NCBI GenBank assembly: GCA_964606485.1
Contig: CAZSGP010000005.1
Location: 11,649 to 75,648 of the forward strand
DNA: 64,000 bases
From: an uncultured Planctomycetia bacterium
GTDB taxonomy: Bacteria; Omnitrophota; Gorgyraeia; 2-02-FULL-51-18
Direction: 5' to 3'
Shown here: positions 17,500 to 60,008 of the stretch, one piece after another
How positions within the stretch are numbered: position 1 is the first letter of the stretch
How the letters are laid out: each line of letters begins with the position of its first letter
Program-made: the position numbers and the translations under genes
The notes under the pieces: model-generated
The model's input: the letters and a program-made list of their open reading frames with translations, nothing else
What the model was told of the DNA's origin: nothing
The model's database searches: none

Positions 17500-17534
17500 A
17501 TCGGGGTAAACGCTTCTTTTTCTATAGGGGAAAT
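17500..17534 (-). promoter_or_regulatory. Bipartite direct-repeat motif, site a (ATCGGGGTAAAC-N13-TATAGGGGAAA)
   Basis: Member of the 11-copy motif family. It overlaps the stop of the giant gene and lies about 35 nt upstream of the start at 17465. Confidence 0.4.
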
Positions 17535-20500
17535 GACGCGGGGATCTGAACCTCGACCCTGTGTGTTTTGCGGTCATCGATCAGCGGTATCGTCATTTCA
17601 CTGCAAAGAACACCGTCGACTCTCACACTGCTACGCTGCTCCTCCTCGGTCTGTGAAATAGCAATCTGGTAGAGCGTCTTCTTGTAGTGATAATTCATTT
17701 TTAACGATTTCCAATCCACAGGAAGACAAGGCTTAAAAGTGAGTTTGTCTGCCTCGAGCTTTAGTCCTAGCAACGATTCGATAATCAGTCGGTACATGCC
17801 GCCTGCTGAGCCGGTATACCAGGTCCATCCGCCGCGGCCGGTGTGGGGCTCGAGCGCATAGACGTCAGCGGCGGCAACATAAGGCTCTACCTTGTAAGTC
17901 GAAATTTTTTCTGGGGTCGCCGAACGGTTGACCGGATTCATCATTCTCATGAGTTGCCAGGCGCGCTCATTATCCCCGAGATCTGCAAATGCCATCGCAG
18001 CCCAGATCGCCGCGTGCGTGTACTGTCCGCCATTTTCTCGAACACCCGGAATATACCCTTTGATATAACCGGGATTTAAATTAGATTTATCAAACGGTGG
18101 ATCAAGTAGTTGAATTAATCCGCTTTCTCTATGAATGAGACGCTGATCGAGCGCCGACATAGCTTGTTGAGCGCGTGCGTGACTGGCCGCTCCAGAGAGC
18201 ACGCTCCAACTTTGGGAGACAGAATCGATTTGGCACTCCACATTCTTTTTAGAACCGAGTGGCGAGCCATCATCAAAATAAGCACGCAGATACCACTCGC
18301 CGTCCCAACCGTACTGCTCGAGATTTTTCTGGAGTTTCTGGGCCTCGACCCGACAGCGCTCTACAAAAACGGCGTCCCCTCTTTTTTCGGCGATTTGTGC
18401 AAATTGCGTGAGCACTTCATAAAGGAAAAATCCCAGCCAAACACTTTCTCCTTTGCCGTGAATACCGACTAAATTCATGCCGTCATTCCAGTCGCCGCTT
18501 CCCATTAACGGCAAACCATGTTCACCAAATTGAAAATTTTTTAAGATGGAGCGTGTGCAGTGCTCGTACAAACTCGCTATTTCTTTTGAAGGACTAGGCG
18601 CATCGTAATACGATTCTTCTGATGCTTGAAGCGGCCGCCCCTCCAGAAAAAGAACCGGTGCATCCAATATCCCGGTGTCCCCGGTACCGCTCACGTACCG
18701 GTGCGTGGCCCACGCGAGCCAGAGAGAGTCATCCGAGCAGCGCGTGCGTACTCCGCGTCCCGACGGCGGATGCCACCAGTGCTGAACATCCCCTTCCTGA
18801 AATTGACGGCTCGCACAAAGAAGAATGTGCTCGCGCGCCAGATGCGGCTTCGCATGAATCAGTGCTGCCACGTCCTGCAATTGGTCTCGAAAACCAAAAG
18901 CTCCGCCGGATTGATAATGAGCGCTCCGGGCCCAGAGGCGGCACGCCAATGTTTGGTATAAAAGCCAGCCATTGGTGAGCACATTTAATGCCGGGTCAGG
19001 AGTTTCAATTTGAATAGTGCCAAGCGTCTCTTTCCAATATTGATTCACCTTTTCGAGCGCTTGACGCGCAGGAACAGATCCTCGGAAACGGTTCACCAAA
19101 TTTCGGACATCCTCAATACCCGACCCCGCTCCCAACATAAAAACAATTTCCCGTTCCTCTCCGCTTGCTAACCCGAAAGGAACTTGAATGGCTCCGCAGG
19201 GATCTAAAACCGCACCCACTTTTCCGGAAAGATGCGAAGATCTCATCGCAGCTGGATTTTTCATCGAGCCGTTACGCCCGATAAACTCGGTGCGATCACC
19301 ACTCACAGTACGCGATGTCTCGCTCACATCAAAAAAAGCAATGCGCTCGCCAAATTCCGGCACGTATGAATTTCGCGCGAAAAGCGCGCTCGTTTTGGAA
19401 TCTATTTCGGTCGTCACATGCATCACCGATTTTGACCGCAAGTCTCCAAGCACCCACTCCACGAAACCCGTCGCGGAAATCCGGCGCGGGCGGCCCGAAT
19501 GATTTTTTATTTTGAGTACGGAAAATTTCACCGCCGCGTCGAGCGCCACATAGACGCTTAGCTCTGAATAAAGTCCTTCTTCGAGATGTTCGAAAACACT
19601 GTATCCAAATCCGTGCCGGACAACGGAGGGTCCAAGACCTTGGGCGGGCATGGGTGTGGGAGACCAAAAGCGCCCCGTTTCTTCGTCCCGCAGGTAAATT
19701 GCCTCTCCGCTCACATCACTCACAAGATCGTTATTCCACGGCGTCAGACGAAACTCGTGAGCATTTTCATTCCAGGTATAAGCACTGCCATTTTCAGAAA
19801 TAACAGATCCAAAATGCGCATTAGCCAACACGTTTACCCACGGCAGCGGCGTTTTTTTTCCGGGCCCAAGATTCATGACGTATTCGCGCCCGTCCAATGT
19901 AAATCCACCTAGCCCATTAGAAAAAATAAGCTCGCGGCTCGGCAAACTTTTAAGTCCATCGCGCGAAATAACCGGGCTTTGAATTTTGGCAGGCAGGAAG
20001 CGTGACGTTTGCGCTTCTGTGGAAGCGCTACGATGAATTTGAACGGCTAACTTTCCTTGGTCATCCCTTATGATGGCGCGCGCGACCGATTGAAAGAGGA
20101 GTCGGTCCTCGTTGGATATTTGCTCCGAAGATCTCACAAAAATTCCTCCGGATCGATGCGATTTTTTCCCCTCTGCAATCCCGGCGATCAAACTCATAAT
20201 TTCTTCGTGAAGCGATTGTTGGTAGTCGCCATGATCTTCATTCCAGATCACGAGATCCACCGGCAAGCCCTTTAAACGCCAGTACGCGTACGCCTGAACC
20301 ATTTGACGCACAAGCTCCAAATTGACTAGCTCTCGAATCTGCACGAGAACAATCGGCAAGTCGCCCGAGATCGAATATCCCCACAAACCCGACTGACCCC
20401 TGCGATTTTTAATAAGAATATTGGGATCCGCACGCAAAGAAGCGTTGGTGTAAATCACGGAGTTCGCAATACGCCGGTACGTTTGGGCGTCCGATTCTGT

Positions 20501-23500
20501 AGCATTAATTTGCCGCAGCACCACTTGACCGTGCGTCCACGCGAGCTCCGAGACCCGATCCGCGAGCCGCCGGTCGTGATATTTCTCAATCAAACTTAAA
20601 GCCGCTTCGCGCGTTTCGCCGACACCGGTGACCATGTCCACCGTCGCCGATTGACCGGGCTCTAGAGTGAGCTGACACCGGATCGCGACAATTGGATCTA
20701 GCACTGAGCCTTGCGTCTCCGATAGCGCTGAAAGATCTTTCATTGCCTGAGGCTCCTCGAGTGTATTTCCGCGGCCGATGAATTTTAGTCGGTCCGTCTC
20801 GTAAGAAATTTTTTCAATTTTGGCTCCGTGTGCCGTCATCAAATGAAACATCCACGACACCTCTTCGTCCGAAGATCGCGGGCGGCGCGTGCAGAGAATG
20901 GATTGCAATCGGCTAATAATTTCAGTTTGGACAAAAAGATTGCTGAACGCAGGATGCAAAGCGTCCGAAGCACAGGGCGCCATCACCACCTCGGCGTAAC
21001 TTGTCACATCCAGTGTCTTGCGTGTCCGGGAACGGTTCGTGATGCGAAGCCGGCGCAATTCAATATCATCTTCCGGCGAAACAATCACCTCGTACTGGGT
21101 GTCAAAATCATGGTCGTGGCGTTGAAATTCCGCGCGGCCTTCTGAAAAAATAGCTTCGTAATTTTTTGGCCGCTTCAGAGTTGGTTGATAGGCCGCCGAC
21201 CAAAACTCTTGGCTCGTCAGATCACGGATGTAGCAAAAAGCGCCCCAGTTATCACACGTGCTATCCTCCCGCCACCGAGTCACCGCGAGATTTTTCCAAC
21301 GACTGTACCCGCCTCCCGCGTTTGTGACCATCACGTGATAACGACCGTTGGATAAAAGCTGCACTTCCGGCACCGCGGTGTCCGCATTTTTAAATCCTTG
21401 CACAGACGGCGGAGAATTACTGGAAGGCGCGCGAATTCCGGGCAGCTCAGTCGGGTGCGCGTGAAAGAGCGCCGCCTTTGGAACCCGTTCTTGGAGCAGC
21501 AACAGTGTGGCTTGAAACGGCGGGTCTGATTCAAACCGCTTTTGCATCAAAGGACCGAGCAACACATAAGCTAAGGAAAGTAAATTCATCCCCTGATGAT
21601 GTGCTAAATAAGATTGAAGAATCACTCCCTGCCCCCCGCGCCTTTTTCGGGAAGGTGTAAAATCAACCGCTTCATAAAATCCAAATTTTCCAAGCATTCC
21701 TTCGTCGGCCAGTCTCTGCAAATTTAAATAAGCGGCCTCATGGTTTACCATGAGTGCTAAATGCGTCGCATACGGAGCAATCACTAAATCGTCCGCAAGT
21801 CTCCGCTTCAGTCCCAGACCCGGCACGCCGAAAGCTCGGTACTGATAATTAAAATCGGAGTCCACCGTGTTGTAGCCGGATTCCGACACCCCCCATGGCA
21901 CCCCACGTTCTTTTCCATACTGTATTTGTTTTCTCACAACCGCTTTATAGGTCTGATTAAGGAGTGTGTTCGGATAAGCCGGCATGACTAAAAGCGGCAT
22001 GAGATATTCAAACATCGATCCGCTCCATGAAAGAAGAATGGAATCGCCTCCCGTGTTCGTTAAAAGGCGTCCGAGGGCAAACCAGTTTTCTTGCGAGATC
22101 TGACCCTGAGCAATCGCGACAAAACTACACAATCTGGCTTCCGACGCGAGCAGATCATAAAAACTCGGGTCGCGTCGCCGCTCATCGACGTTGTATCCAA
22201 TGGCTAAAAGGTGGCGTGTTTCGTCGTACAGAAAGCTGTATTCCATTCGAGCGCAATCGATGCATTGCAAAATAAGTTGCTCGATCAAGCGCAAACGATT
22301 TTTTGCGAGGACGCAGATTTCAGGGGCCGTTTCAAGCACTGACAATTCACGCAGCGTCGGAATACTAGCAAGCTTTGAGAGATCACCAAAAAAAACCAGC
22401 TCTTCTAAAGCGGAGCGACATTGAGCATCGAGCGCCCCTGACCACAAACCGGCTTGGCTGTCCCGGTGCTCGGAAAAATGTTGTTTTATTTCGCCGGCAC
22501 TTTTTGCGAGCGACTCCAAAAAATGTTTGGCAGAGACCGCTGTGATCGGTTTAAAATTCAAAGCGCTTTCCAGATCCCTCTGAAAGTTTGCGAGCGACTC
22601 CACCGTCCGGTCTTTGGCCTCCTCCCAAAAAACCTGAAAGGTATCACTCAAACCCTCGAACACGCGCGCGCTTAAAACCGGTTGGCCGCCAAGCGCCAAC
22701 AGCCCTTGTTGAAGCGTGATCAAATTAGCCGCGAGATTTCCGCTGTCCACCGTCGAGATATATCCGGGAATCAGAGGCTTAAGCGTTTGAGTGTCGTACC
22801 AATTATAGAAATGTCCCTGATGGCGCTTGAGTAGCGCCATCGTGCGCAGTGTGTTTTGAGTCCGCTCGAGCAGAACACTCATACCGGTGTAGCCAAAATC
22901 ATACGCCGACAAATTCGCGAGAAGCGAAAGTCCGATATTGGTCGGAGACGTTCGGTGAGCCACCCTCTCTAGCCGGTTTTCTTGAAAGTTATCGGGCGGC
23001 AACCAATGATCACCCGGCCCGACTAAATTCTCAAAGTAGGCCCACGTTTTTCGGCTCACCTTTCTTAAAAACCGAGCTTGGTCCTCCGTCATTTTTACAG
23101 AGTGTTGCAAAAGAGGACGGCTTATCCACCACGCCACCGCGGGTGAAACCATCCATAAAAATAAAATGGGAAGCGCCAAAACCAACACCTCACTTTTTAA
23201 TAGGAATAGATAAATCGTCATCGTCAAACTGATGAGAGGCGCTGCCCACATTAAACGGCAGGAAATCATTAAATCTTTTGAATCGTCGCAATGATGAGTA
23301 ACGGAGAGTTTCCATTCCAGAAGGCGTTTATGAGTAATCAGCATTCGGACCATCGTCCGCGCGATGGCGTCCAAACTCAGAAGCGCTTCATAAGGAAGAC
23401 AGCCTATTGCAAAAACAGCCTGAGCCAAACGTTGACCTATGGAACGAGCGAATGCGGCTAAATGATGACGCAGAAGAATTTCATCTGCTTTGCGGAAAAT

Positions 23501-26038
23501 TTCGAGAAACGAAAGTATTAAAGATGGGATTAAAATAATTCCGACGAGCAATAAAGTCCACTGCGCTGCCGCCGGCAAAACGATCCACCCGATTAAAAAT
23601 AAGAAGAGCTGCGCTACAGGGACGAGACTGCGCCGCAAATTATCAAAAATTTTCCACTGTGACAATCGGGAGATGGGGTTATTGATCCGATGCTCACCCA
23701 GACCTCGGACACTTGACCAGAGCCAGCGCACGAGTTGCCAATCGCCGCGAATCCAGCGATGCCGGCGGCGCACGTCAGTGTCGTAACGGGAAGGATATTC
23801 CTCGTAAAGCTGCACATCACTCAGTATTCCTGAGCGCAAATAACAACCCTCCAAAAGATCATGGCTTAATATTTGGCCGTTCGGGAAACGCCCTTTTAAA
23901 ACGCGTTTGAACATTTGGAGATCGTAAATGCCTTTACCCATAAACGAGCCTTCGCAAAAAACGTCCTGGTAAACATCGGAGACGGTGCGCGTATAAGGGT
24001 CAATCCCCGCTTCGCCCGCAAATAATTGTGCGTAAAGTGAGCGGCCGGCACCTGGAAGACTGACGCTCACCCGCGGCTGGAGAATTCCGTATCCTTCCAC
24101 GACGCACTGCCGAACCGCATCGTACCGGGGACGATTGAGCGGATGCGCCATGGCTCCAACCATTTGCCTCGCCGAACCACGCGGCAATTGAGTGTCTGTA
24201 TCCAAGGTGATCACGTATTTCACGTCCGATAAAACAACCGTGTCACCGACAATAAGCGAAAATCTATTTTTAAAATTACCGCACAAAAAGGAGTTTAAGT
24301 CCTCGAGTTTTCCGCGCTTTCGTTCGTGGCCCATCCAAATTTCATCTTGAGCATTCCAAACCCGCGGACGGTGAAAAAGAAAAAAGATGTCCCCTTTTTC
24401 GGACCTGTACTTTTGATTCAGGGTTTCAATATTTTTTTGGACAAGCTCGAGCAGCGGTCCATCTTCTTCAAGGTTTTTTCCCGATGCGTCTTGAAAATCC
24501 GTGAGCAGTGCAAAATGCAGATTTTCTCCCCGATTGGCCAAAAACCGGACTTCCAAAGCTTCGACTACGGCTTCAGCGCCCTGAGCGTTCGTGAGCATAG
24601 TAGGAACCACCACTAGTGTTCGAAGCTCCGGAGGAATTCCTCGAGACAAATCCATTCGCGGCAAAAGACGCGGCGCAACACACAGCATGGACAAAAAATT
24701 TACTAGCTCCACCGCGGGTTGACTCGTAAAAATAAATGTAAAAAAATAAATCAAACCCATCACCCAGGAAGGAACGCCACTCGTCAGAACGTGTGACAGA
24801 AGACCCGCAGTTAACGTTCCCGTAATCAATAAAATGACGCTTAGGTAAAGAGTGAGTGGAAATTGGGCCATCGTCTTTAAAAAACGGTCTGTCATTGACG
24901 GCCGCATTTGAACGCTGCGTTCGAGACTCAAAACCCCTTTATCGATAAGATAAAATCCAACGTCGGCCGCTCTGCCATTATCTCCTTCCGGCGGAGGACT
25001 TTCGCAGGTCAATCGGATCGCTCGACGCGCCACTTCCTCTTCGGAAAAACTGCTTTTTTTAGCAATTCTTTCCACCGCGTGCCGGTAACGGTCGCGGGTC
25101 GCAAAATCCATCTTTGAATAAATTCCGCTAGGTTCCTTTTGCAGGCACCGCTCGACGGCACTGTTGGTTTCAACAAACTCGCTCCAGTCCATCGTCCTCA
25201 GCAAACGAAGACTGCCGATGCTGTTGCTCACGGAAATTTGATCCGCCGCTTGCTTCTGATTCTCCTGAGCGACCAATTGTTGGATGGTAAAATTGGATTC
25301 GGATAACCGGTGTTTGATCCAATTGAGCGTCAGTGCCGGTTCCAGATTGTGTTCTTGCAGCAAACGCGCAAGTTCTGCCACAAACGAAGCAGACATCGGT
25401 GGGTTTGATCGCACCATGTCTGCCACCACCAACATCAGGCTTTTTGGATCTTTATGGGCCATTTCAATCATCTGATCTGCCCAAAAATTAGCTAGATTTC
25501 GATCATTCCGGTCAGCGGCAATCGAAGACCCCACTCTCCTAAAATTTTCTATAAGAGCCAAGCGCAGCATGATGGGAATCGCCCACAATTCGCCGAGCTT
25601 AAGAACCGAAATCTCCTGGTAAGATGCGATAAAACCGCCCAAACTTTCAGGGTCCACCCGCCCATCTCCATGCGAGATGGTTTCCAAAGCGATGTCGTAA
25701 ACCCGCGGAAGCATGGCAGACGGATCTTTGGCCAAACGAGGCAGCTCACGGCTGTAATTTTTTGGCAAATGTCGTTTTGCTGTTTGAATTTGTTCCTCGA
25801 TCAGATAAAAATTATCCAACAGCCATTCCTCGGCAGGTGAAATATGGCGTCCCGCCTGTGCTGTTGCGGACAAAAGGGATCCTATCTTCGTCAGGATTTT
25901 TTCATTGTTCTTGAGGCGCGCGAGAAGTAATTCTGGAGTTTTTTTGGAGACCAAGTGATGCGAGCCCGCCAGCGTTTTTCCGTGCTGCTTCATTTGATCG
26001 GTGCTAAACAATTCCGATCTTAGCGGCGGCTCGCGCAT
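17522..26038 (-). CDS. Cyclic beta-1,2-glucan synthase-like giant protein (NdvB/ChvB/Cgs family: membrane GT84 + glucoamylase-like (alpha/alpha)6 + C-terminal GH94 phosphorylase)
   Basis: Single 2838-aa ORF. The GT region has LVVVPTML...FALLTDFQDA...WMGHERKRGKLEDLN and is flanked by TM clusters. The middle region has NIGLSLLANLSAYDFGY and LLSWSGSMFEYLMP. The C-terminal GH94-like region has GWDGEWYLRAYFDDG. Length and domain order match NdvB/Cgs. Confidence 0.8.
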   Translation of the reverse strand: MREPPLRSELFSTDQMKQHGKTLAGSHHLVSKKTPELLLARLKNNEKILTKIGSLLSATAQAGRHISPAEEWLLDNFYLIEEQIQTAKRHLPKNYSRELPRLAKDPSAMLPRVYDIALETISHGDGRVDPESLGGFIASYQEISVLKLGELWAIPIMLRLALIENFRRVGSSIAADRNDRNLANFWADQMIEMAHKDPKSLMLVVADMVRSNPPMSASFVAELARLLQEHNLEPALTLNWIKHRLSESNFTIQQLVAQENQKQAADQISVSNSIGSLRLLRTMDWSEFVETNSAVERCLQKEPSGIYSKMDFATRDRYRHAVERIAKKSSFSEEEVARRAIRLTCESPPPEGDNGRAADVGFYLIDKGVLSLERSVQMRPSMTDRFLKTMAQFPLTLYLSVILLITGTLTAGLLSHVLTSGVPSWVMGLIYFFTFIFTSQPAVELVNFLSMLCVAPRLLPRMDLSRGIPPELRTLVVVPTMLTNAQGAEAVVEALEVRFLANRGENLHFALLTDFQDASGKNLEEDGPLLELVQKNIETLNQKYRSEKGDIFFLFHRPRVWNAQDEIWMGHERKRGKLEDLNSFLCGNFKNRFSLIVGDTVVLSDVKYVITLDTDTQLPRGSARQMVGAMAHPLNRPRYDAVRQCVVEGYGILQPRVSVSLPGAGRSLYAQLFAGEAGIDPYTRTVSDVYQDVFCEGSFMGKGIYDLQMFKRVLKGRFPNGQILSHDLLEGCYLRSGILSDVQLYEEYPSRYDTDVRRRHRWIRGDWQLVRWLWSSVRGLGEHRINNPISRLSQWKIFDNLRRSLVPVAQLFLFLIGWIVLPAAAQWTLLLVGIILIPSLILSFLEIFRKADEILLRHHLAAFARSIGQRLAQAVFAIGCLPYEALLSLDAIARTMVRMLITHKRLLEWKLSVTHHCDDSKDLMISCRLMWAAPLISLTMTIYLFLLKSEVLVLALPILFLWMVSPAVAWWISRPLLQHSVKMTEDQARFLRKVSRKTWAYFENLVGPGDHWLPPDNFQENRLERVAHRTSPTNIGLSLLANLSAYDFGYTGMSVLLERTQNTLRTMALLKRHQGHFYNWYDTQTLKPLIPGYISTVDSGNLAANLITLQQGLLALGGQPVLSARVFEGLSDTFQVFWEEAKDRTVESLANFQRDLESALNFKPITAVSAKHFLESLAKSAGEIKQHFSEHRDSQAGLWSGALDAQCRSALEELVFFGDLSKLASIPTLRELSVLETAPEICVLAKNRLRLIEQLILQCIDCARMEYSFLYDETRHLLAIGYNVDERRRDPSFYDLLASEARLCSFVAIAQGQISQENWFALGRLLTNTGGDSILLSWSGSMFEYLMPLLVMPAYPNTLLNQTYKAVVRKQIQYGKERGVPWGVSESGYNTVDSDFNYQYRAFGVPGLGLKRRLADDLVIAPYATHLALMVNHEAAYLNLQRLADEGMLGKFGFYEAVDFTPSRKRRGGQGVILQSYLAHHQGMNLLSLAYVLLGPLMQKRFESDPPFQATLLLLQERVPKAALFHAHPTELPGIRAPSSNSPPSVQGFKNADTAVPEVQLLSNGRYHVMVTNAGGGYSRWKNLAVTRWREDSTCDNWGAFCYIRDLTSQEFWSAAYQPTLKRPKNYEAIFSEGRAEFQRHDHDFDTQYEVIVSPEDDIELRRLRITNRSRTRKTLDVTSYAEVVMAPCASDALHPAFSNLFVQTEIISRLQSILCTRRPRSSDEEVSWMFHLMTAHGAKIEKISYETDRLKFIGRGNTLEEPQAMKDLSALSETQGSVLDPIVAIRCQLTLEPGQSATVDMVTGVGETREAALSLIEKYHDRRLADRVSELAWTHGQVVLRQINATESDAQTYRRIANSVIYTNASLRADPNILIKNRRGQSGLWGYSISGDLPIVLVQIRELVNLELVRQMVQAYAYWRLKGLPVDLVIWNEDHGDYQQSLHEEIMSLIAGIAEGKKSHRSGGIFVRSSEQISNEDRLLFQSVARAIIRDDQGKLAVQIHRSASTEAQTSRFLPAKIQSPVISRDGLKSLPSRELIFSNGLGGFTLDGREYVMNLGPGKKTPLPWVNVLANAHFGSVISENGSAYTWNENAHEFRLTPWNNDLVSDVSGEAIYLRDEETGRFWSPTPMPAQGLGPSVVRHGFGYSVFEHLEEGLYSELSVYVALDAAVKFSVLKIKNHSGRPRRISATGFVEWVLGDLRSKSVMHVTTEIDSKTSALFARNSYVPEFGERIAFFDVSETSRTVSGDRTEFIGRNGSMKNPAAMRSSHLSGKVGAVLDPCGAIQVPFGLASGEEREIVFMLGAGSGIEDVRNLVNRFRGSVPARQALEKVNQYWKETLGTIQIETPDPALNVLTNGWLLYQTLACRLWARSAHYQSGGAFGFRDQLQDVAALIHAKPHLAREHILLCASRQFQEGDVQHWWHPPSGRGVRTRCSDDSLWLAWATHRYVSGTGDTGILDAPVLFLEGRPLQASEESYYDAPSPSKEIASLYEHCTRSILKNFQFGEHGLPLMGSGDWNDGMNLVGIHGKGESVWLGFFLYEVLTQFAQIAEKRGDAVFVERCRVEAQKLQKNLEQYGWDGEWYLRAYFDDGSPLGSKKNVECQIDSVSQSWSVLSGAASHARAQQAMSALDQRLIHRESGLIQLLDPPFDKSNLNPGYIKGYIPGVRENGGQYTHAAIWAAMAFADLGDNERAWQLMRMMNPVNRSATPEKISTYKVEPYVAAADVYALEPHTGRGGWTWYTGSAGGMYRLIIESLLGLKLEADKLTFKPCLPVDWKSLKMNYHYKKTLYQIAISQTEEEQRSSVRVDGVLCSEMTIPLIDDRKTHRVEVQIPASFPL

Positions 26039-26044
26039 CGACTT

Positions 26045-30349: not shown

Positions 30350-30399
30350 AGCGGTTCTCCTTAAGTGTTTTCAGTATAGACAGGTAAGTGAGCGCCAAC

Positions 30400-30434
30400 C
30401 ATCGGGCACAATCCCCGTTCTTTGGTAGGGGAAA
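30400..30434 (-). promoter_or_regulatory. Bipartite motif, site b (ATCGGGCACAAT-N13-TAGGGGAAAC)
   Basis: It lies in the 180-nt gap between the TagA-like stop and the PGT operon. Confidence 0.35.
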
Positions 30435-45693: not shown

Positions 45694-45705
45694 TACGAAC
45701 TTAAG

Positions 45706-47468: not shown

Positions 47469-47508
47469 AATCCTTATCTTAGGCCTATTTGGGTGATATA
47501 CCTACGTC

Positions 47509-47572
47509 TATCATAGGTCGTGCACCCGCCTCTGGGTATCGGGGGAAGTCCCTAATCTTGTATCAGGCAGAG
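47509..47572 (-). promoter_or_regulatory. Bipartite motif, site e (TATCATAGGTCG ... TATCGGGGGAAGT-N13-TATCAGGCAGAG)
   Basis: It lies between the PA2778-like stop and the histidine kinase start. Confidence 0.35.
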
Positions 47573-48543: not shown

Positions 48544-48551
48544 TTCCCGAT

Positions 48552-48947: not shown

Positions 48948-48996
48948 AGTTGTTTCTCCTTAGGCTCCCATCATAGTTGAAGCACGGCGCTTACGA

Positions 48997-49032
48997 ATAT
49001 CGGGGCGATTCCTTTATTTGCTATCGGGAATG
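48997..49032 (-). promoter_or_regulatory. Bipartite motif, site f (ATATCGGGGCGATT-N11-CTATCGGGAATG)
   Basis: It lies 50 nt upstream of the PA2779-like start and overlaps the stop of the 811-aa gene. Confidence 0.35.
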
Positions 49033-52622: not shown

Positions 52623-52630
52623 TAAAATAT

Positions 52631-54901
52631 TCACAGCGAGATTTCGACCGCGCTGTTGCCTATTTGGACTGGGACGTTCGCTAAGCCGGGGAAGCGGATT
52701 TCGATCACTGGCTCTTTGCCGTCCCGCCACTGCCCCGACCACTGAACTCTCACTTTTTTATTTTGGGTCTGAATCTGGATTTTAATCGGGCCGAAACGAG
52801 TGAGCGTGGGACCTAGCGATAAGTTAGTGCCGTTCGTTAACCATTCTTTGGGAATTCCAGAACACAGGACTAACTTTCCATCGGACTCTTCTTCGCGTAC
52901 AAAGCAATTCCGGATCATCTGCACCCATTCTGAAGCGGCCCACAAGTGCTGCCCGTCGCCCATGCATCCGCCTTTTGTCCGGGGATGAATGGCTTCAGGC
53001 CACTGACCCGTCGGCGAGGCAAGCGACGCAATCGCGTTCATCAAATCAAAAAAACGGGGATCTCCCGCTCTCAAAAAAACCTGGGCGATGTGCAGTGTAA
53101 GATACGGGTTAATCCCCGAGTGGCTGATTTCCTGATAAAACCCACCCTCAAAAAAACATTCCTTAAATAAATAATCAACCGTATTCAAGAGTCTTGCGTC
53201 GTTCGCCTTAAAAAGTTGTAAGGGGTATCCTGCGGCAACAGACCCGATCGCCCCAGCGTCCATTCTTCGATGAGGAGACGCCGGCATAAACGGCCCCCCG
53301 ATTTGTCCGCGCAGATTCTTAAGGCTTTTTTCGATGCATTCCATAAATTCCAAAGACTCGCCTAAAAGATTTTCCGCAAAACTCTTATCACCGTATGCGG
53401 CTGTCAAATAACGACCCGCTTGAAAACCCGCAACGCCCCAAAAATCGTCCCAGTAGTAATAGTCATTGTGACCCAGATGTTCGGCGCTAAAACCGATGGG
53501 TAGCAAACCAAAATAAGGGCTATCTTTCTTTTTAATTCGTCTTGCTTTGAGCCACTGCACGGCTTTATAAATGGGTTTGCGCCATTTTGGTTTTGGTTTT
53601 GTTCCGGTGAGTTCGCAAAAGCGTTGCATAATCCACAAAGCTTCTCCGTTAGAGTCCCACTCCCCGTCTTGCGACAGAAAATATCCGCTCCTGGTTTGAC
53701 GCGAGGGAAAGCGGTCGATGACTTTTTCAACGCGGTCGATCATTCCGACACATAGCATGGTGTGCAGCATGAAAGCCGCGTCGCGAAACCAAAATCGTTT
53801 GTAGGTGAAAGGTCCCGGATAAATATCTAGAGGCGAATGCAAAATCAAAGATCGGATCGCGGCGTCATAAAGAAATTGAAACTGTTTGTTGGGGATCTCG
53901 AGCTCACAAAGACCTTTTAAATTTTCGTCCCATTTTTGAATGGGGAAATCTTCCGAGTGCTGGCTGGGCTCGCGATCAAAATCCTTTTTGAGAGGAATGG
54001 AGACGATGATTTGCCGCTCTCTATTTGGTTCGAGCTCGAAAAGTGCAACCGCTGTCGCAAGGCCCACATTGCACTCGACCTGCGACGCTTCAGTGGACAC
54101 AGCGAGCTGCCCAAATACATCCCCATCCCAGTAGCGGGAAAAATTAACCCGGTCGGGCTTCGCATTAAAATGAATAAAAGAATGTCCGTTTACTTTCCAT
54201 CCGCGTCGGCTTTCAAGCAGCGCAATTTTATCGATGAAGCTAATCCCCTCCGGATTGTAAGGTCTTAGCGAGACCGCGAGCCACCCGCCTTTCGGAGAAA
54301 ACGCAGACAGTTTGATCCGACAAATCGTCACCGGCTCTTCCTGATATGAGTCGACGTTTGAGCGAAGAACAATGCCTTGATCATCGGCGATCGTTTGAAT
54401 CTGAGGATTTCCCTTAAGAATAAATTCCTGCTGAACTTTTTTTAATCGCGAAGGAACGAGTGCCGTGCCATCCGTTTTTACAATCCACTGATCGATGGAC
54501 CACCCGTCAAAAAAGGGAGTTACAAGACCCCTTGGGTCCACAATTGTAAAATCAACCGAATCCGGAACGCCGATCGCCGTCCAATTGCGATGTGTCAGAT
54601 TTAAATCCGCTAAATTAAAAGCGCGGGGAAGAAACGATTCGTCGTTTGGGTCAAACTGGCGCTCGACCCAGTAAGGCCAAACCCAGTCCATGTTGTGTTG
54701 AATGGCCTGACTATTGATGAGACCTCTGGCTTGCATCACAGCACCCGCCCGAAGCAGTTCCTTGGGGGCTGTTAATTCGGACACTTGAGCAAAACGTCTT
54801 AAGTGAGATAAAAGAAGGATGGGGTCAGGAAAGCCTTCCGCGGCTGCAACAATCCTGACAATAAAATTCCACAAACGCCACTGCAATTTTTTCCAAATCA
54901 C
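52631..54901 (-). CDS. (alpha/alpha)6-barrel glycoside hydrolase, clan GH-L-like (GH15/GH63/amylo-alpha-1,6-glucosidase-type)
   Basis: YKRFWFRDAAFM (the WxRD motif of GH15/GDE-type enzymes) and later acidic residues in GFYQEISHSG / WPEAIHP context. There is an N-terminal beta-sandwich. Confidence 0.5.
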   Translation of the reverse strand: MIWKKLQWRLWNFIVRIVAAAEGFPDPILLLSHLRRFAQVSELTAPKELLRAGAVMQARGLINSQAIQHNMDWVWPYWVERQFDPNDESFLPRAFNLADLNLTHRNWTAIGVPDSVDFTIVDPRGLVTPFFDGWSIDQWIVKTDGTALVPSRLKKVQQEFILKGNPQIQTIADDQGIVLRSNVDSYQEEPVTICRIKLSAFSPKGGWLAVSLRPYNPEGISFIDKIALLESRRGWKVNGHSFIHFNAKPDRVNFSRYWDGDVFGQLAVSTEASQVECNVGLATAVALFELEPNRERQIIVSIPLKKDFDREPSQHSEDFPIQKWDENLKGLCELEIPNKQFQFLYDAAIRSLILHSPLDIYPGPFTYKRFWFRDAAFMLHTMLCVGMIDRVEKVIDRFPSRQTRSGYFLSQDGEWDSNGEALWIMQRFCELTGTKPKPKWRKPIYKAVQWLKARRIKKKDSPYFGLLPIGFSAEHLGHNDYYYWDDFWGVAGFQAGRYLTAAYGDKSFAENLLGESLEFMECIEKSLKNLRGQIGGPFMPASPHRRMDAGAIGSVAAGYPLQLFKANDARLLNTVDYLFKECFFEGGFYQEISHSGINPYLTLHIAQVFLRAGDPRFFDLMNAIASLASPTGQWPEAIHPRTKGGCMGDGQHLWAASEWVQMIRNCFVREEESDGKLVLCSGIPKEWLTNGTNLSLGPTLTRFGPIKIQIQTQNKKVRVQWSGQWRDGKEPVIEIRFPGLANVPVQIGNSAVEISL

Positions 54902-55602
54902 CCTATCTCCCCTTTTCCGGAGGGATTTCCATCAGCCGTTTCGATGCTTCTCTGTTCCAAAACGGGTAGATGAGGACTGATGGGATAAACGCTTTGCTCA
55001 AATTCATCTCTCCTAAGAATTGTTTCGTACAAAAGTCGTCGGGCATCCATGTATCCGGGGTTCATTTGAAGGGCTCGAACACTGTCGGAGAGCGCTGCGT
55101 CAATATAGCCGCTCAGCATGAACGCCAGACCGCGCATGAAATAAAGTTGGGGATCCTCCGGAGAAAGTTTTATGGCAATTGAACTATCGGCAATAGCGCC
55201 TTCGAAATCATTTTTGACGATCCGCGCATTGCACCGCTCGAAGTAATAACCGGATTGGGTTTGATTGAGCTCAATGGCCTTTGAAAAATCAGAAATCGCC
55301 GCGTCGATCTTGTGTTGCCGCCGGTAACTCGCACCCCGGTTGAAGTACACGTCCGGCGCATTGGGTTCTATTGCAATCGCCCGCGATAAATCAGCGATCG
55401 CCGCGTCGTATTCCCCTTTTTCAAAGTAGCCCGTGCCGCGGTTAAAGTAGGCCTTTGCGTCTTGGGGGTCCGTTTTTAAAATTTGATTGGATTCAGCGAT
55501 CCATTCATCAGGACTTTTTTCGTCCGCGTAAACCGGCGCAACACCCGCACCGATCACCGCACAAAAAAGAGACAATGCTATCCATCGGACTAATCTTTTC
55601 AT
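54898..55602 (-). CDS. Secreted TPR-repeat protein
   Basis: Signal peptide. Five or more TPR units (AKAYFNRGTGYFEKGEYDAAIADLSRAIAIEP...). Confidence 0.8.
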   Translation of the reverse strand: MKRLVRWIALSLFCAVIGAGVAPVYADEKSPDEWIAESNQILKTDPQDAKAYFNRGTGYFEKGEYDAAIADLSRAIAIEPNAPDVYFNRGASYRRQHKIDAAISDFSKAIELNQTQSGYYFERCNARIVKNDFEGAIADSSIAIKLSPEDPQLYFMRGLAFMLSGYIDAALSDSVRALQMNPGYMDARRLLYETILRRDEFEQSVYPISPHLPVLEQRSIETADGNPSGKGEIG

Positions 55603-55635
55603 AACGTCATGTTAAAGCAGGCGTCGTTTTTTAGA

Positions 55636-55671
55636 AATCAGGTCAAGCGCCTAAGTTTCTATCGGGGGAAC
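55636..55671 (-). promoter_or_regulatory. Bipartite motif, site g (AAATCAGGTCAAGC-N10-CTATCGGGGGAAC)
   Basis: It lies 35 nt upstream of the TPR gene start and overlaps the DUF3108 stop. Confidence 0.4.
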
Positions 55672-56508
55672 GCCTTTTGGAGGGGTAGGGTGTTTCAACA
55701 CGCCTTCCACAGAGCCGAACGGAGTTTGGAATTTTATAAAGACAGGTGTGTGAAACTTGTCGTTCTTTAAATAAATCAATGCTTTTCCTTTTTTTGCCCT
55801 CTCCCCTTTAAGCTGAGTCTTGGGCTCAATTATGAAAACGTCCACAAGGCCCTGCCCGCGGAGCTCAACCCTCTTTCTCGAGAGAACATTCACATCCAGA
55901 GTCCAATCCACTTGATTGCAGCTAAGCACCACTTTCATAGATTGGCCGGGGACAAGCGCCTGGCGCCGCACCCAGTAAAAAACACTCAAAACATCTTGCA
56001 CAGGTGTCGTGACATCAAACTCTTTTTTTCGGCCCGTCTCAAAAGATTCGCTGCGGCCTTTTCGGCGAGAAGCATAAAACTCGTCCTTTTCATCGGCATG
56101 AGTCTTGCCTTCGTCCATTTTCTTTTGAAACTGAAGGGATTGGAGTGTGTGGACGTCGATCCAGCTGTGTGCTTCATTTTTAACCGGATAAAACTTTGAA
56201 AGAAATGGGTTCGCTTGCACCTTCCCAACAACATGAAATACTTTCCTTCCGCGCAAAACAGTCTTTTCTTTGACCCACACTTCGCCCACGCCTACCGGAA
56301 TCCCAATCCAAAACACGTCGTAAATAAAACGTTCACCCACGCGAATCGTCTGATCGGGAGAAACTAGCTCGCCGGATTTGGTCACACGAGCATTCGTAGA
56401 AAAATTAGTCGCAGAAAAAAGAACCTGGCCCGGAGCAAATAAAAGGAAAAGGAAGAAAAGTAAGGTCGTAAGATAACGCTTCATACTTTCGTTTCCTTTT
56501 CCTATCAA
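55651..56508 (-). CDS. DUF3108-like secreted protein
   Basis: Signal peptide followed by GERFIYDVFWIGIPVGVGEVWVKEK..., the GE.L.Y.V.W.G..AG pattern typical of DUF3108. Confidence 0.5.
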   Translation of the reverse strand: MIGKGNESMKRYLTTLLFFLFLLFAPGQVLFSATNFSTNARVTKSGELVSPDQTIRVGERFIYDVFWIGIPVGVGEVWVKEKTVLRGRKVFHVVGKVQANPFLSKFYPVKNEAHSWIDVHTLQSLQFQKKMDEGKTHADEKDEFYASRRKGRSESFETGRKKEFDVTTPVQDVLSVFYWVRRQALVPGQSMKVVLSCNQVDWTLDVNVLSRKRVELRGQGLVDVFIIEPKTQLKGERAKKGKALIYLKNDKFHTPVFIKFQTPFGSVEGVLKHPTPPKGVPPIET

Positions 56509-56541
56509 TCACACCGGGCCCAGACCCCTTTAAGCGTGCTG

Positions 56542-56715
56542 CTATTCGCCTGCCGTGGTGTGTTTCACATTCGTATACGGCAGGTAGGCTCCATTTTTCA
56601 AACTGTCGTCCATCGGTGAAGAGCGTCCTGATTCGTCGTTGAAATCATACGCATAGGGCCTCTGCGGTTTGCGCCATGGAGACTCGTTCTTTTTTCGTGT
56701 CGGCTTTTGACTCAT
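56542..56715 (-). CDS. 57-aa hydrophilic hypothetical protein (MSQKPTRKKNESPWRKPQRPYAYDFNDESGRSSPMDDSLKNGAYLPYTNVKHTTAGE)
   Basis: It follows the DUF3309 gene by 14 nt on the same strand. Below the ORF-track length cutoff. Confidence 0.3.
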   Translation of the reverse strand: MSQKPTRKKNESPWRKPQRPYAYDFNDESGRSSPMDDSLKNGAYLPYTNVKHTTAGE

Positions 56716-56729
56716 AATTCTTCCTTTCG

Positions 56730-56885
56730 TTACGTTAACCGTCCGCTAACTGCAAGCACAATCAAAACAATAAAAATAATTGAGAACACGCCGCTCGGCG
56801 CATATCCCCAATGCATGCTATAAGGCCAAGTCGGAAGCGCTCCAACCAGCAAAAGCACTAGTAGCACTAGTAAAATAGTTCTCAT
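56730..56885 (-). CDS. DUF3309 family small membrane protein (51 aa)
   Basis: MRTILLVLLVLLLVGALPTWPYSMHWGYAPSGVFSIIFIVLIVLAVSGRLT contains the GALPTWPYS..WGY signature. Motif site h is 50 nt upstream. Confidence 0.65.
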   Translation of the reverse strand: MRTILLVLLVLLLVGALPTWPYSMHWGYAPSGVFSIIFIVLIVLAVSGRLT

Positions 56886-56932
56886 GATGACTCTCCTTTT
56901 TTTGCTCACGATTCCATATTAGGCTAAGCATG

Positions 56933-56969
56933 GGAGTCGTAAAATCAGGGTAAATGCGCAATTCGTCAT
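56933..56969 (-). promoter_or_regulatory. Bipartite motif, site h (AAATCAGGGTAAAT-N11-CATCGGGGAAAT)
   Basis: It lies in the intergenic region between the autotransporter stop and the DUF3309 start. Confidence 0.45.
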
Positions 56970-57028
56970 CGGGGAAATATTCTCTGCCAGCGGAATCTGG
57001 CGTATCAATTCAGAGGACCGGCTTTGAC

Positions 57029-59176
57029 TTAAAATGTCCACCGTACGGTCGCAAGACCCGTGTGTGAAGAGAAATCATTTGCGAACTTATAGTCGTAGGT
57101 CCCAGTGACACTGACATTGCCCTTTGAATAAAAGGTCAAACCGGTTCCGACATTATAAGTGCTTTTTTCAGGATCCAGACCATTGGTGTTAAAGGACGCG
57201 CCGCCACCCGTGAACGTAGACGTCGTGGCAACCGCATCACCGATAAAATCATACAGCCAGCGCGCATGCACTTCGGGCACCCACTTTCCGGAAGCGTCGT
57301 CTTTGAGAGTTCCATCAATTCTCACGCCTAGAGCCGACAAAAGTTGGTCGTAATTCTGGCTATTAACGTTTAGATTCACATCCCCCGCGCCGGTCTCTGT
57401 GTATTTGCTAATTTCGGTATGAGAATAGGTAAGGCCCGCGATCGGTGTGATATTCCAATCTGGATTGATCGGAACCACATAACCCACATCCCAGAATCCG
57501 GTATAGGTCTGCCCGTCAGGACTTGAGGTCGCCGTGCGATTGACACCCGGAAACACAATATTGCGGGTGGTATCGTAGGAATTCCACGTGAACATAAAAC
57601 CCATGTCGCCGTACCAGGGGCTCGGATCATCGAAACTCACATAGACTGTTCCAATGTAGCTATCAATATTCGTTCCACCGGTTGTCCCTTCGTTGTCAAC
57701 ATTGGTCGCCGCGTACCCGCCGGCAATCCCCAGGAGCACCTCACGGGTAAGAATGCCATCCACGCCGCCAATGATTCCGCCCGTGGTTGAATCATAGCCG
57801 CTAACACCTTTGTGCGTATCTTGCGTAGCACTTTCACCAAATCCTTTGATCCAAATACCGTTGTTCTTCCAAAAATCTCCCGTCGAAATGCCACTGCGAC
57901 CGGGAGATGGATTATTACCAGCCTCACCCAAATGCGTGGTCAAAGCACCCATCGCCTCATTCGTCGTATTAAAAGCCACCTGTGTCGTAACGCCATTATT
58001 CGTTGGATCGAGTTGTGCGACAGCATTGGCAACTACAATGGGGTCAGAAAGAGCATTGATGGGAGCAAAAATATCAGAATTAGGAATCGTCGCTAAAACG
58101 GCCGCTGCCGGCGTTGTCGCAGTCGTGAGTGGTATACCAGTCACTCTCACTGTCACAATACCATTTAGGGTGCTCGCAAGCGGCACCGGGGCAAACGTAT
58201 AAAGAGGATTGGTTGGATTCTGAACGGTCACAGCCACAACGCTTCCGCTAGTTCCACTTGTGGCTTGAACAATATTAAACTGAGTTCCGACTGGAATAGA
58301 GGATGTCGCAGGAACCAGCACGTTGACTCCCAGCGTCGCCGGAAGCGTTACAGCTCCCACCGGAACAATGCGACCAAAAACCGTCGCGCTCGCCAAGGTT
58401 GTATTGATACTGCTGGGTCCAGGATTGTCGATCGCCAGAGCTCCGGTAATATTCAGCGTGTTAGTGCCCAAAGAAAAGGAATAGGCTTCTACCGCGCCAT
58501 CTATGGTGGCCGTCACCCCAGCAATATTGCTTCCCCCAACGACGTTGATCGCCTTAAGATCAAATGCACCGCCGCCGACTGCGCCGAGCCAGGTACTCCC
58601 GCTTGCAAGAGATAGCGTTCCGGTATTGTCCGTGCCTGTGATTAGCGCGCCAATATTTTGCGTATTAGCCGCGAGACTGACGGTGCCATCGCCGGTAAAA
58701 GTCACAGCTCCGCGGTTTGTGATGGTACCGCTATTAAAGTTCACCGTACCCGTCCCAACATTCATTGTCGTCGCAAAAACGGTTCCTTGAAAATTTGTCG
58801 TGGCGTTTCCGGCAGCAGTTACGTTGAAGAAGGAGAGTAAGTTCGTCCCCAAATCCCCACTCACAGTCGATGTCACGAGGTCATTGAATAGGATGCTGTC
58901 CGAGTTGTTAACGTCTGTTGAGACGGAAGGACCGCCAATAGCACCGATATTTGGGAAGCCGACTCCTACGGTCAAGGTTCCAACGCCACCTGTCATATCA
59001 ACACCGTCTGTCTGACCGGCTGCGTTCACCGTGCCGCTGGCGACAACAGGTTGCCTTATGGCAAAACTTGGTGCACACCAAGTAATCATGACTATCACGA
59101 TCATGAAAAAAGAAAAAATCCGCTTGAGCGAAGCGGATATATTTAAATTTTTATAATTTACGTTCACATAGGTCAT
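57029..59176 (-). CDS. Autotransporter (type Va) with Gly/Thr/Asn-rich repetitive passenger and C-terminal 12-strand beta-barrel
   Basis: Extended signal peptide. Passenger rich in TG/GT/NxT repeats. C-terminal barrel ending ...GLATVRWTF. Confidence 0.8.
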   Translation of the reverse strand: MTYVNVNYKNLNISASLKRIFSFFMIVIVMITWCAPSFAIRQPVVASGTVNAAGQTDGVDMTGGVGTLTVGVGFPNIGAIGGPSVSTDVNNSDSILFNDLVTSTVSGDLGTNLLSFFNVTAAGNATTNFQGTVFATTMNVGTGTVNFNSGTITNRGAVTFTGDGTVSLAANTQNIGALITGTDNTGTLSLASGSTWLGAVGGGAFDLKAINVVGGSNIAGVTATIDGAVEAYSFSLGTNTLNITGALAIDNPGPSSINTTLASATVFGRIVPVGAVTLPATLGVNVLVPATSSIPVGTQFNIVQATSGTSGSVVAVTVQNPTNPLYTFAPVPLASTLNGIVTVRVTGIPLTTATTPAAAVLATIPNSDIFAPINALSDPIVVANAVAQLDPTNNGVTTQVAFNTTNEAMGALTTHLGEAGNNPSPGRSGISTGDFWKNNGIWIKGFGESATQDTHKGVSGYDSTTGGIIGGVDGILTREVLLGIAGGYAATNVDNEGTTGGTNIDSYIGTVYVSFDDPSPWYGDMGFMFTWNSYDTTRNIVFPGVNRTATSSPDGQTYTGFWDVGYVVPINPDWNITPIAGLTYSHTEISKYTETGAGDVNLNVNSQNYDQLLSALGVRIDGTLKDDASGKWVPEVHARWLYDFIGDAVATTSTFTGGGASFNTNGLDPEKSTYNVGTGLTFYSKGNVSVTGTYDYKFANDFSSHTGLATVRWTF

Positions 59177-59282
59177 AATGACCTCCTTTTTGAAAAATAA
59201 TTTAATGTCGTCGATCGTCGGCTGGGTACTTCCCTAGTTTAATTTTCATGTTTGATATCCTAGAACGAAGACGCTTACGGAA

Positions 59283-59319
59283 AAATCAGGGCAAACCCTT
59301 AAATGTCTATCAGTGAAAC
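59283..59319 (-). promoter_or_regulatory. Bipartite motif, site i (AAATCAGGGCAAAC-N10-CTATCAGTGAAAC)
   Basis: It lies about 100 nt upstream of the autotransporter start and abuts the TVP38 stop. Confidence 0.4.
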
Positions 59320-59939
59320 TACTCAATTGTGGAAGCTTGTAAGGCTTTTTTGACAACCAGCGCCGAATAAATGCCAATTGTGAGCGTCACAGCAAAACCA
59401 AATCCGACGAGCACCCATTCAAGCGAAGTTTTTTGAGCGGAAGTTTTTTCGAACACAATTTTTCCGGCGAGTGTGCCCAGATAAACGTATAAGAGCGCCC
59501 CCGGGATCATGCCGATTCCGGAAACTAAAAAATATCTCTTAAAACTAATTTTACTGAGCCCGAGAATGTAATTCAGAATGGTAAAAGGAAGAATTCCCGA
59601 AAGACGCAGAAGTAAAACCATCTTCCACCCGGCTTTGTTGACCGCGTTGTCCAGCGCCCTGACTTTTGGGCTTGCGACAATTTTTCTAGAGACCCATCCC
59701 CTCGACAAATTTCGACCCGCCAAAAAGCCGCCGGAGGCACCGATGAGTGAAGCAATGAGAACCACGGCAACACCCATAGGGATACCAAAAAGCGCTCCTG
59801 CCATCAGCGTCAAAAGCACAGTTGGCATGAAAAAAACGGTTAAAATGACAAAAACAGGAATGAACACTAAGGGCGCAAAAAAACCGACATGCTTCACCGC
59901 GTGCATCACCTGTTCGAGAAAAATCCTGAGATGCTCCAT
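59319..59939 (-). CDS. TVP38/TMEM64 (DedA-related) family membrane protein
   Basis: Multi-TM protein with ...LTLMAGALFG...LRLSGILPFTILNYILGLS... The true start is possibly MHAVKH at about 59906. Confidence 0.7.
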   Translation of the reverse strand: MEHLRIFLEQVMHAVKHVGFFAPLVFIPVFVILTVFFMPTVLLTLMAGALFGIPMGVAVVLIASLIGASGGFLAGRNLSRGWVSRKIVASPKVRALDNAVNKAGWKMVLLLRLSGILPFTILNYILGLSKISFKRYFLVSGIGMIPGALLYVYLGTLAGKIVFEKTSAQKTSLEWVLVGFGFAVTLTIGIYSALVVKKALQASTIE

Positions 59940-59970
59940 GCATAATGATACGTCGAGCTTTCAGACGTAA

Positions 59971-60008
59971 AAATAGGGGGAAATACTTGAATACCTATCG
60001 GGGGCGTT
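59971..60008 (-). promoter_or_regulatory. Bipartite motif, site j (AAATAGGGGGAAAT-N11-CTATCGGGGGCGTT)
   Basis: It lies in the divergent intergenic region upstream of TVP38, with no minus-strand gene upstream. This supports a promoter-side role. Confidence 0.45.

Follow-up and report, generated by a model that had tools for sequence, protein, structure and literature searches.

In Mycobacterium tuberculosis, promoters that the DevR/DosR response regulator controls contain Dev boxes arranged in tandem at -42.5 and -63.5, where cooperative binding is nucleated by the conserved primary box and extends to its degenerate neighbour (PMC3177182). The activation complex of DosR makes contact with sigma region 4 as well as the C-terminal and N-terminal domains of the alpha subunit (PMC13486717). 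A comparable arrangement is found in a stretch of 64,000 nucleotides (nt) from contig CAZSGP010000005.1 of an uncultured bacterium assigned to the Omnitrophota (hereafter the window, meaning the whole stretch analysed). Here, 11 intergenic sites share a tandem-repeat element, and a sensor histidine kinase and a NarL/FixJ-family response regulator are encoded among them. The Omnitrophota and related bacteria are uncultured; their cells are often ultra-small, and they may depend on hosts. The 11 sites are probably activator-dependent promoters of the sigma-70 type driven by the adjacent NarL-family regulator, and the element would activate rather than repress.

The likeness to DevR/DosR includes the regulator family, a cytoplasmic kinase combining a PAS/GAF-type sensory domain with HisKA_3, and an operon that appears to be autoregulated. 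It further extends to tandem boxes of which the proximal one replaces the -35 element, a conserved box or half-box beside a degenerate one, half-sites with a G/C triplet that may form palindromes, and a regulon of stress and persistence genes. However, the two regulators share identity at the family level only and are not orthologues, and the heptamer is CCCYGAT here and GGGACT there. The boxes are 24 base pairs (bp) apart and out of helical phase, compared with 21 bp in the mycobacterial system, and the strongest elements are two direct repeats instead of a full palindrome. In addition, the regulon contains polysaccharide, autotransporter and entericidin genes, and the PAS sensor is without an obvious cofactor motif.

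All 11 sites are read on the minus strand, and each lies within an intergenic gap. At every site, a distal repeat, TTTCCCC[G/T]AT, is followed by a proximal repeat, TTnCCC[C/T]GAT, and the half-site register, measured from CCCYKAT to CCCYKAT, is 24 nt in 11 of 11 cases. An earlier sequence-only reading of this DNA had proposed a bipartite motif at 11 sites with a variable spacer of N10-13; all of the sites are real, but the spacer is wrong, as the register is fixed. Of the proposed coordinates, those at 36555 and 47509 fall 20-30 nt downstream of the repeats, which truly span 36576-36609 and 47538-47571. The two-part description was also incomplete, as it lacked the -10 hexamer at its fixed distance and a third heptamer, which is inverted and degenerate and lies between the two repeats, and the motif-free left part of the window, given as 11 kb, measures 17.4 kb.

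A regular expression for the proximal repeat and the hexamer gives 12 matches in the window, 12/12 on the minus strand, and one for the two repeats gives 12 matches, 11/12 on the minus strand. Dinucleotide shuffles yield 1.8 +/- 1.3 and 0.8 +/- 0.9 matches, respectively, and the corresponding figures for control DNA (1.29 Mb of unrelated bacterial loci obtained from a genome-collection search with pepF) are 1.1 and 1.8 matches per 64 kb. When both strands are scanned with a 41-nt matrix of the repeat block, precisely the 11 sites and no others are recovered in the window, without copies inside window genes, and a single match of at least 5 bits is found on the two strands of the control DNA. 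Site 48997 scores 19.1 bits with this matrix although it was outside the training set. Between 17.4 and 60 kb, all minus-strand intergenic gaps longer than 38 nt contain a site, with the exception of the 221-nt gap at 56508-56730. No sites were found by the gap survey and the matrix scan in the left 17.4 kb or at the plus-strand genes of the window, nor was one found in ~2.7 kb to the right of the window, as represented by one overlapping Logan contig.

The hexamer, of the form TAnnAT or TAnnCT, lies 22 nt (once 23 nt) downstream of the GAT of the proximal repeat at 11 of 11 window sites and is absent from the earlier description. At four sites, the annotated ATG (17465, 44863, 55602 and 59939) is located 5-6 nt past the hexamer, implying leaderless mRNAs. 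The fixed hexamer and its register with these ATGs argue that the sites are sigma-70-type promoters without a -35 box, at which transcription would start ~7 nt past the -10 hexamer. Setting the hexamer at -12 to -7 places the proximal CCCYGAT at -41 to -35 and the distal one at -65 to -59; the -35 hexamer is not conserved, and TT alone remains at -35/-34. A generic sigma-70 consensus scan of 44000-60300 reported 23 sites and called none of the eight modules located there. The suggestion that the element is a promoter or operator rather than a 3' element is borne out by the fixed hexamer, the leaderless ATGs and the divergent gap at 59971, which is confirmed and faces the ORF6N gene. Besides tRNA, no Rfam families were detected in the window.

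The same geometry is found outside the window. Metagenome contigs from the Joint Genome Institute (JGI) were scanned with a strict pattern of the motif letters only, which gave 71 loci, largely syntenic with the window and ranging in G+C content from 0.29 to 0.61. A single 14+22 spacing is shared by 57 of 76 exact pattern matches, against a chance expectation of one in six (six combinations were allowed), and thus ~50 or more of the matches are genuine. The repeat matrix gave 96 sites in the 71 loci, and 29 unique sites had not been picked by the pattern; 25 of these 29 have TAnnnT exactly 22 nt downstream. As the matrix ignores the hexamer, this is an independent confirmation of the geometry. 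An aligned profile of 88 non-redundant sites reads GG(-72/-71) .. TTTCCCC[G/T]AT[A/G]GAAAAT[c][a]AGnGnTT[g]CCC[T/C]GATT[t][c] across the repeat block and, after a gap, TTG(-18..-16) .. C(-13) TAnnAT(-12..-7) G(-6) .. A(+1) around the hexamer. Here, T-12, A-11 and T-7 each reach 0.89-0.90, and A is enriched at +1. Weak extra conservation is seen in TTG at -18 to -16, two bases upstream of the classical TGn extension, and in C-13 and G-6. A same-strand open reading frame (ORF) of at least 40 amino acids (aa) follows within 250 nt at 82 of the 88 sites, and an in-frame start codon stands at the predicted +1 in 18 of the 88, a few of these being GTGs with a likelier downstream ATG. Divergent back-to-back pairs of sites occur in five loci (L093, L139, L151, L121 and L082). 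As for the organisms concerned, the taxonomic assignment is based on database labels only: the closest pepF relatives in the genome collection are metagenome-assembled genomes labelled Candidatus Omnitrophota (66-68% identity) and 'uncultured Planctomycetia' (71%), and the named close homologues of the regulator are by label Omnitrophota/Omnitrophica (66-72% identity), Lindowbacteria (one, 68%) and Planctomycetota (one, 61%).

Orthologues of the kinase and the regulator are the only recurrent regulatory genes in the motif-selected loci. Regulator orthologues of at least 60% identity are present in 12 of the 71 motif-selected loci versus 0 of 80 control loci (1.34 Mb). Immediately ahead of the kinase gene, the motif occurs both in the window (47510-47571) and in four relatives' loci, L101, L113, L116 and L148, one case being leaderless, and the site before the kinase-regulator operon implies autoregulation. 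In a reverse test, contigs were chosen by regulator homology from a protein search, the motif not being considered. At 65% identity or more, 6/6 loci (L153, L154, L155, L158, L162 and L163) carry sites, which are located upstream of the operon holding the pair and directly after the regulator gene. Module 5 of the window (Table 1) likewise lies directly downstream of the regulator gene, a position kept in relatives. Where the regulator is only 58-60% identical, L156 shows a weak motif and L159 a diverged one, L160 and L161 have none, and the kinases differ in domain structure.

The kinase is a soluble protein. Its one PAS domain contains a single cysteine and no recognisable cofactor motif, and its matches as a whole in the PDB are DesK, VraS and DosT, the best being DesK (3e-14). 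An NreB-like Fe-S oxygen sensor was considered and ruled out on account of the one cysteine. The structures matched by the regulator are NarL (5e-30), DevR (3c3w, 2e-25) and also VraR, a similarity at the family level. The adjacent LuxR-type regulator named as a candidate by the sequence-only reading is favoured by the comparative evidence, although it was wrongly described as 'winged-helix' and has a GerE/LuxR-type helix-turn-helix.

A related motif, TTCCCCGAT..AAAAATAcGAGC..TTTTCCCCGATAG, is present in soil contigs of a distant lineage with a G+C content of ~0.55 (L098, L102, L106, L122, L127, L129 and L145), where its register is 26 nt and ATCCCTGATA occurs upstream as a third copy. The gene immediately before it in L098, L102, L106, L127 and L145 encodes a NarL-type regulator. 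This regulator is only 32-36% identical overall but has a similar recognition helix, TVERHCEHIK versus TVETYREHIK in the window, and its receiver looks atypical in that VGDT replaces the acidic pair. This motif may represent a sister system in another lineage.

The conserved block comprises 34 bp in place of a -35 hexamer, and the -10 hexamer is usually preceded by C at -13. Across the 88 aligned sites, a heptamer in reverse orientation scores best at -53 to -47, midway between the direct copies, although its mean score is still negative. In low-GC lineages, this middle element matches perfectly, as ATCAGGG or AACAGGG; in the window, it reads ATTAGGG or ATAGGG. One way to read the block is as a series of heptamers at 12-bp intervals whose orientation alternates. 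It would then consist of two 19-bp boxes, one centred near -44 and the other near -68, in each of which the promoter-proximal half is strong and the distal half weak. The 88-site consensus of the middle element and the start of the proximal repeat, AATCAAGnGnTTG, preceded by AGAAA, also fits the core of the integration host factor (IHF) site, WATCAANNNNTTR, with an A/T-rich 5' tract. The IHF-like match lies at -54 to -42, e.g., in L100, L108 and L152, while the window sites read ATTAGGG.. and do not match, and the most conserved middle base, G-48 (0.92), falls in the unspecified positions of IHF. The resemblance is probably coincidental.

What is demonstrated is a conserved motif of fixed geometry that stands before genes and is linked to those of the kinase and regulator, and from this a mechanism can be proposed. 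While the boxes exist at -35 to -68, we infer the steps beyond them as follows. The PAS domain would sense a signal and the kinase would phosphorylate the regulator, which may then bind the heptamers cooperatively, probably as two dimers, at the boxes near -44 and -68. The proximal heptamer at -41 to -35 would abut the position of sigma region 4, and the bound regulator could recruit RNA polymerase with the housekeeping sigma factor through contacts to sigma region 4 and to the C-terminal domain of alpha, in the manner of DevR/DosR at its tandem Dev boxes. The system would thereby turn on the operon that encodes it and a 43-kb island in which 11 operons lie side by side. Predicted targets are stress proteins, including entericidin, a Dps-like ferritin and DUF3309 as well as superoxide dismutase, GlsB, HSP20 and a hemerythrin-like protein in relatives, and envelope or surface functions, including polysaccharide clusters, the autotransporter, a giant surface protein and the TPR/glycosyltransferase operon. 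An autoregulated, DosR-like tandem-box regulon is the best reading of the locus, and we hold it with moderate confidence.

Several points weigh against it. Most NarL-family dimers prefer inverted repeats 9-10 bp apart, whereas the strong heptamers are direct repeats 24 bp apart, ~2.3 helical turns and out of phase. Between them, the inverted copy is degenerate, and for a fourth one near -77 to -71 the only hint is G at -72/-71. The link between the regulator and the motif is one of association only, based on conserved neighbourhood and autoregulation-like placement. A regulon member other than the regulator would show the same pattern, so association cannot single out the regulator, and much of the linkage comes from orthologous, syntenic loci that are not independent samples. 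The recognition helix, KTVETYREHIK, is nearly identical in the 58-60% homologues whose loci lack the motif; the helix differences in these homologues are E to A and SRS to (Y/H)LS, and an attempt to read DNA specificity from the helix was uninformative. Finally, the scan of this genome covers 64 kb, and the count of 11 operons holds for this stretch.

These points could also be accommodated by activator-dependent promoters whose binder is a different transcription factor encoded elsewhere, with the kinase-regulator operon as a conserved member of the regulon. Such an unlinked factor would agree with the associative nature of all the regulator evidence, with a 24-bp direct-repeat register that is unusual for NarL-family dimers, and with the lack of a motif near the 58-60% homologues in spite of their near-identical recognition helix. 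Yet, no other DNA-binding family recurs in the 71 motif-selected loci, the motif tracks regulator orthology in 6/6 regulator-chosen loci, and in the distant lineage with the related motif, the gene just upstream of the site again encodes a NarL-type regulator. An unlinked factor thus seems unlikely, and control by the adjacent NarL-family regulator is preferred.

It is improbable that RNA polymerase reads the block directly, in which case these would be promoters of a class specific to the lineage and recognised by an alternative stress sigma factor or an unusual or divergent alpha C-terminal domain. CCCYGAT would then be recognised at -41 to -35 and again at -65 to -59, with the repeats acting as a displaced -35/UP-like element and the two-component system only as a regulon member. 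The fixed distance to the -10 at nearly all sites and the enrichment of C-13 and G-6 would suit this explanation, as would two identical direct repeats facing two identical alpha C-terminal domains and a gene content resembling general-stress sigma regulons. However, the -10 is of the housekeeping type TAnnAT, and 22 nt separate it from the end of the conserved GAT, a longer distance than the 15-18 nt of -35 elements. We know of no sigma family with a geometry of 22 nt from the element to the -10. In addition, UP elements are A/T-rich while the core here is CCC, the AAC and CGT motifs of extracytoplasmic function (ECF) sigma promoters are absent, and no sigma gene recurs near the sites, with one ECF gene found in L156 only. 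The ECF or alternative sigma factor offered as a candidate by the sequence-only reading is rejected on the -10 type, the spacing and the lack of a recurrent or linked sigma gene. Sigma-28 was considered because CCGATA resembles its -10, GCCGATAA; it was ruled out, as no TAAA is found at the proper distance and the true -10 is the TAnnAT located 22 nt downstream, which stands in register with the leaderless ATGs.

Finally, it is highly improbable that the sites are not promoters but a dispersed repeat, similar to repetitive extragenic palindromic (REP) sequences or miniature inverted-repeat transposable elements (MITEs), or an element associated with the 3' ends or terminators of the genes upstream: although several sites overlap or abut the upstream stop codon, and the middle and proximal heptamers form short GGG..CCC palindromes flagged by a terminator scan (plus strand), the spacers between the conserved blocks are unconserved, all copies face a downstream ORF (82/88 within 250 nt), sites occur in divergent gaps without an upstream gene (59971; L093, L139 and L151), the -10 hexamer and the leaderless ATGs stand in exact register, and there are no Rfam matches and no copies inside window genes. 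An RNA element or attenuator formed by the GGG/CCC palindromes was also rejected, as it has no Rfam match and the block lies upstream of the predicted start.

The favoured regulon is distinct from the housekeeping promoters of the organism. The motif is absent at pepF, dnaX and the tRNAs of the window, and TGnTAnAAT is found in its place at pepF, dnaX and one tRNA. The pepF promoter (61050-61087) has the extended -10 box TGGTATAAT, confirming what the sequence-only reading had noticed, and extended -10 boxes are also found at dnaX (3631-3660, minus strand; TGGTAGAAT) and tRNA-Arg (10715-10747; TGAGTAGAAT). At pepF and dnaX, the ATG lies 6-8 nt past the hexamer, and leaderless mRNAs thus seem common in this organism. 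Furthermore, the motif is absent at the ATP-synthase operon adjoining the system in L153 and from ~53 kb around pepF in the closest pepF relatives (L002-L006), and the genome-collection loci retrieved by pepF include no motif-bearing relatives. A general housekeeping promoter had been considered since nearly all gaps between 17 and 60 kb hold sites, and was ruled out on these absences at pepF, dnaX, the tRNAs, the ATP-synthase operon and the pepF-relative loci. The gene content and the absence of the motif at TGnTAnAAT promoters support the original suggestion of a stress or envelope regulon separate from the housekeeping promoter.

Recurrent genes downstream of the motif in the window and its relatives include an operon encoding TPR, 756-aa, GT4 and phosphodiesterase/EEP proteins, entericidin, Dps-like ferritin, DUF3309, GlsB/Transglycosylase-associated protein, Fe/Mn superoxide dismutase, HSP20, hemerythrin-like protein, Gly-zipper lipoprotein, and DUF6627 with a C39-like TPR protein. 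Small secreted proteins, a giant 2838-aa protein, polysaccharide clusters, the autotransporter and the TVP38 protein recur as well. This gene set is the make-up of a general stress plus envelope response. The modules and the regulatory genes of the window are listed in Table 1.

Table 1. Promoter modules of the shared element and the associated kinase and regulator genes in the window.
Feature	Coordinates	Strand	-10 hexamer	Predicted start, downstream genes or role	Basis
Module 1	17472-17533	-	TAGGAT	Predicted start 17465 = A of ATG of 75-aa secreted protein; leaderless	
Module 2	30373-30434	-	TATACT	Ahead of 25-aa membrane peptide (30349-30272) and sugar-transferase/polysaccharide operon	Pfam
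Module 3	36548-36609	-	TATGAT	Ahead of beta-barrel porin (BBP2) gene at 36508 and polysaccharide-export operon	Pfam
Module 4	44870-44931	-	TACGAT	Predicted start 44863 = ATG of 690-aa BNR/sortilin-like exported protein; leaderless	Pfam
Module 5	45631-45692	-	TATTCT	Ahead of entericidin-like lipoprotein (45593-45462) and Dps-like ferritin (45465-44920)	
Response regulator, NarL/FixJ family	45706-46365	-		Receiver and GerE helix-turn-helix; proposed heptamer-binding activator	Pfam
Sensor histidine kinase	46362-47468	-		Cytoplasmic; PAS, HisKA_3 and HATPase_c; proposed sensor	Pfam
Module 6	47510-47571	-	TATGAT	Ahead of operon of PAS histidine kinase and response regulator	
Module 7	48970-49032	-	TATGAT	Sole 23-nt spacer; ahead of DUF6627 and C39-like/TPR genes	Pfam
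Module 8	55609-55670	-	TAACAT	Predicted start 55602 = ATG of TPR lipoprotein; leaderless	
Module 9	56916-56977	-	TAATAT	Ahead of DUF3309-like small membrane protein (56885-56730) and DUF3108	
Module 10	59257-59318	-	TAGGAT	Ahead of autotransporter gene (start 59176); leader ~74 nt	Pfam
Module 11	59945-60006	-	TATCAT	Divergent gap; ATG of TVP38/VTT-domain protein at 59939, 5 nt past hexamer; leaderless	Pfam

The operon of module 1 probably continues through GGDEF, superoxide dismutase and GlsB genes. Its 75-aa secreted protein (17238-17465, minus strand) has a sub-threshold NCBIfam match (E = 7e-5) to the Bdellovibrio 'predatory lifecycle switch protein' Bd0108, which covers the N-terminal 45 residues only and may reflect signal-peptide similarity alone. 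The island also contains a giant ORF of 2838 aa (17522-26038, minus strand), whose 75%-identical orthologue in L091 has its own motif promoter. In module 8, the TPR lipoprotein gene is followed by genes for the 756-aa protein, a GT4 glycosyltransferase and a phosphodiesterase/EEP protein, and orthologues of this operon carry the motif in seven loci (L082, L100, L135, L151, L154, L162 and L163). The DUF3309 family of module 9 recurs in 12 motif loci. Short ORFs on the minus strand are located at or just past three predicted starts, i.e., 30349-30272, which encodes a 25-aa hydrophobic peptide and has a Shine-Dalgarno sequence, 36542-36465, which encodes 25 aa and begins at ~+1 of the predicted start, and 59249-59202, which comprises 15 codons ahead of the autotransporter gene. 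These could be small proteins or leader peptides.

Two tRNA genes gave further observations. The 3' end of tRNA-Ser(cga) (60937-61021, minus strand) is duplicated as a perfect 25-nt direct repeat at 60793-60817 and 60930-60954, 137 nt apart, which, near the ORF6N-domain gene (60246-60779), looks like the scar of an integration at the tRNA. A tRNA-Ser(gga) was identified at 4166-4253 by ARAGORN and is missing from the Rfam gathering-threshold matches.

Other described systems share parts of this architecture. DesK/DesR and related systems of Bacillus and Staphylococcus combine a NarL-family regulator with a HisKA_3-type kinase as seen here. However, DesK is a membrane thermosensor serving one or a few operons, whereas the kinase of the window is soluble and is proposed to serve at least 11 operons, and the repeats are unrelated. 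In staphylococci, NreC binds a GC-rich palindrome (PMC8139620). The NreBC system resembles the pair of the window in its cytoplasmic PAS and HisKA_3 kinase paired with a NarL-type regulator, but differs in that the PAS domain here lacks the four-cysteine Fe-S site, nitrate-respiration targets are absent, and the spacing and half-site are different. The NreC palindrome, TAGGGN4CCCTA, resembles TAGGGACTTTCCCCTGA of the window. Finally, PhoB/PmrA-type promoters likewise have direct repeats immediately upstream of the -10, no -35 box and a multi-operon regulon. Their regulators are winged-helix proteins of the OmpR family acting on an 11-bp period, whereas a GerE-type helix-turn-helix, a 24-bp period and an inverted copy in between are found here.

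In the paper library searched, no description was found of Omnitrophota promoters, transcription starts, regulons or transcription-factor sites, nor of this motif. The element, its geometry and its regulon are new, while two-component activators of the NarL family whose tandem sites take the place of the -35 box are well known. In this lineage, transcripts without a leader and promoters that lack a -35 box appear to be common. For an uncultured lineage, the locus provides a cis-element that is precise and conserved widely, together with a candidate pair of sensor and regulator and a definite set of targets, and thereby the first testable stress and cell-envelope regulon for an Omnitrophota-like group. 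It is probable that the system acts as a DosR-like switch for stress or persistence and surface remodelling in these bacteria. While the mechanism itself, a NarL-family activator beside the -35 position, would be conventional, the finding offers a handle on gene regulation that is tractable without cultivation.

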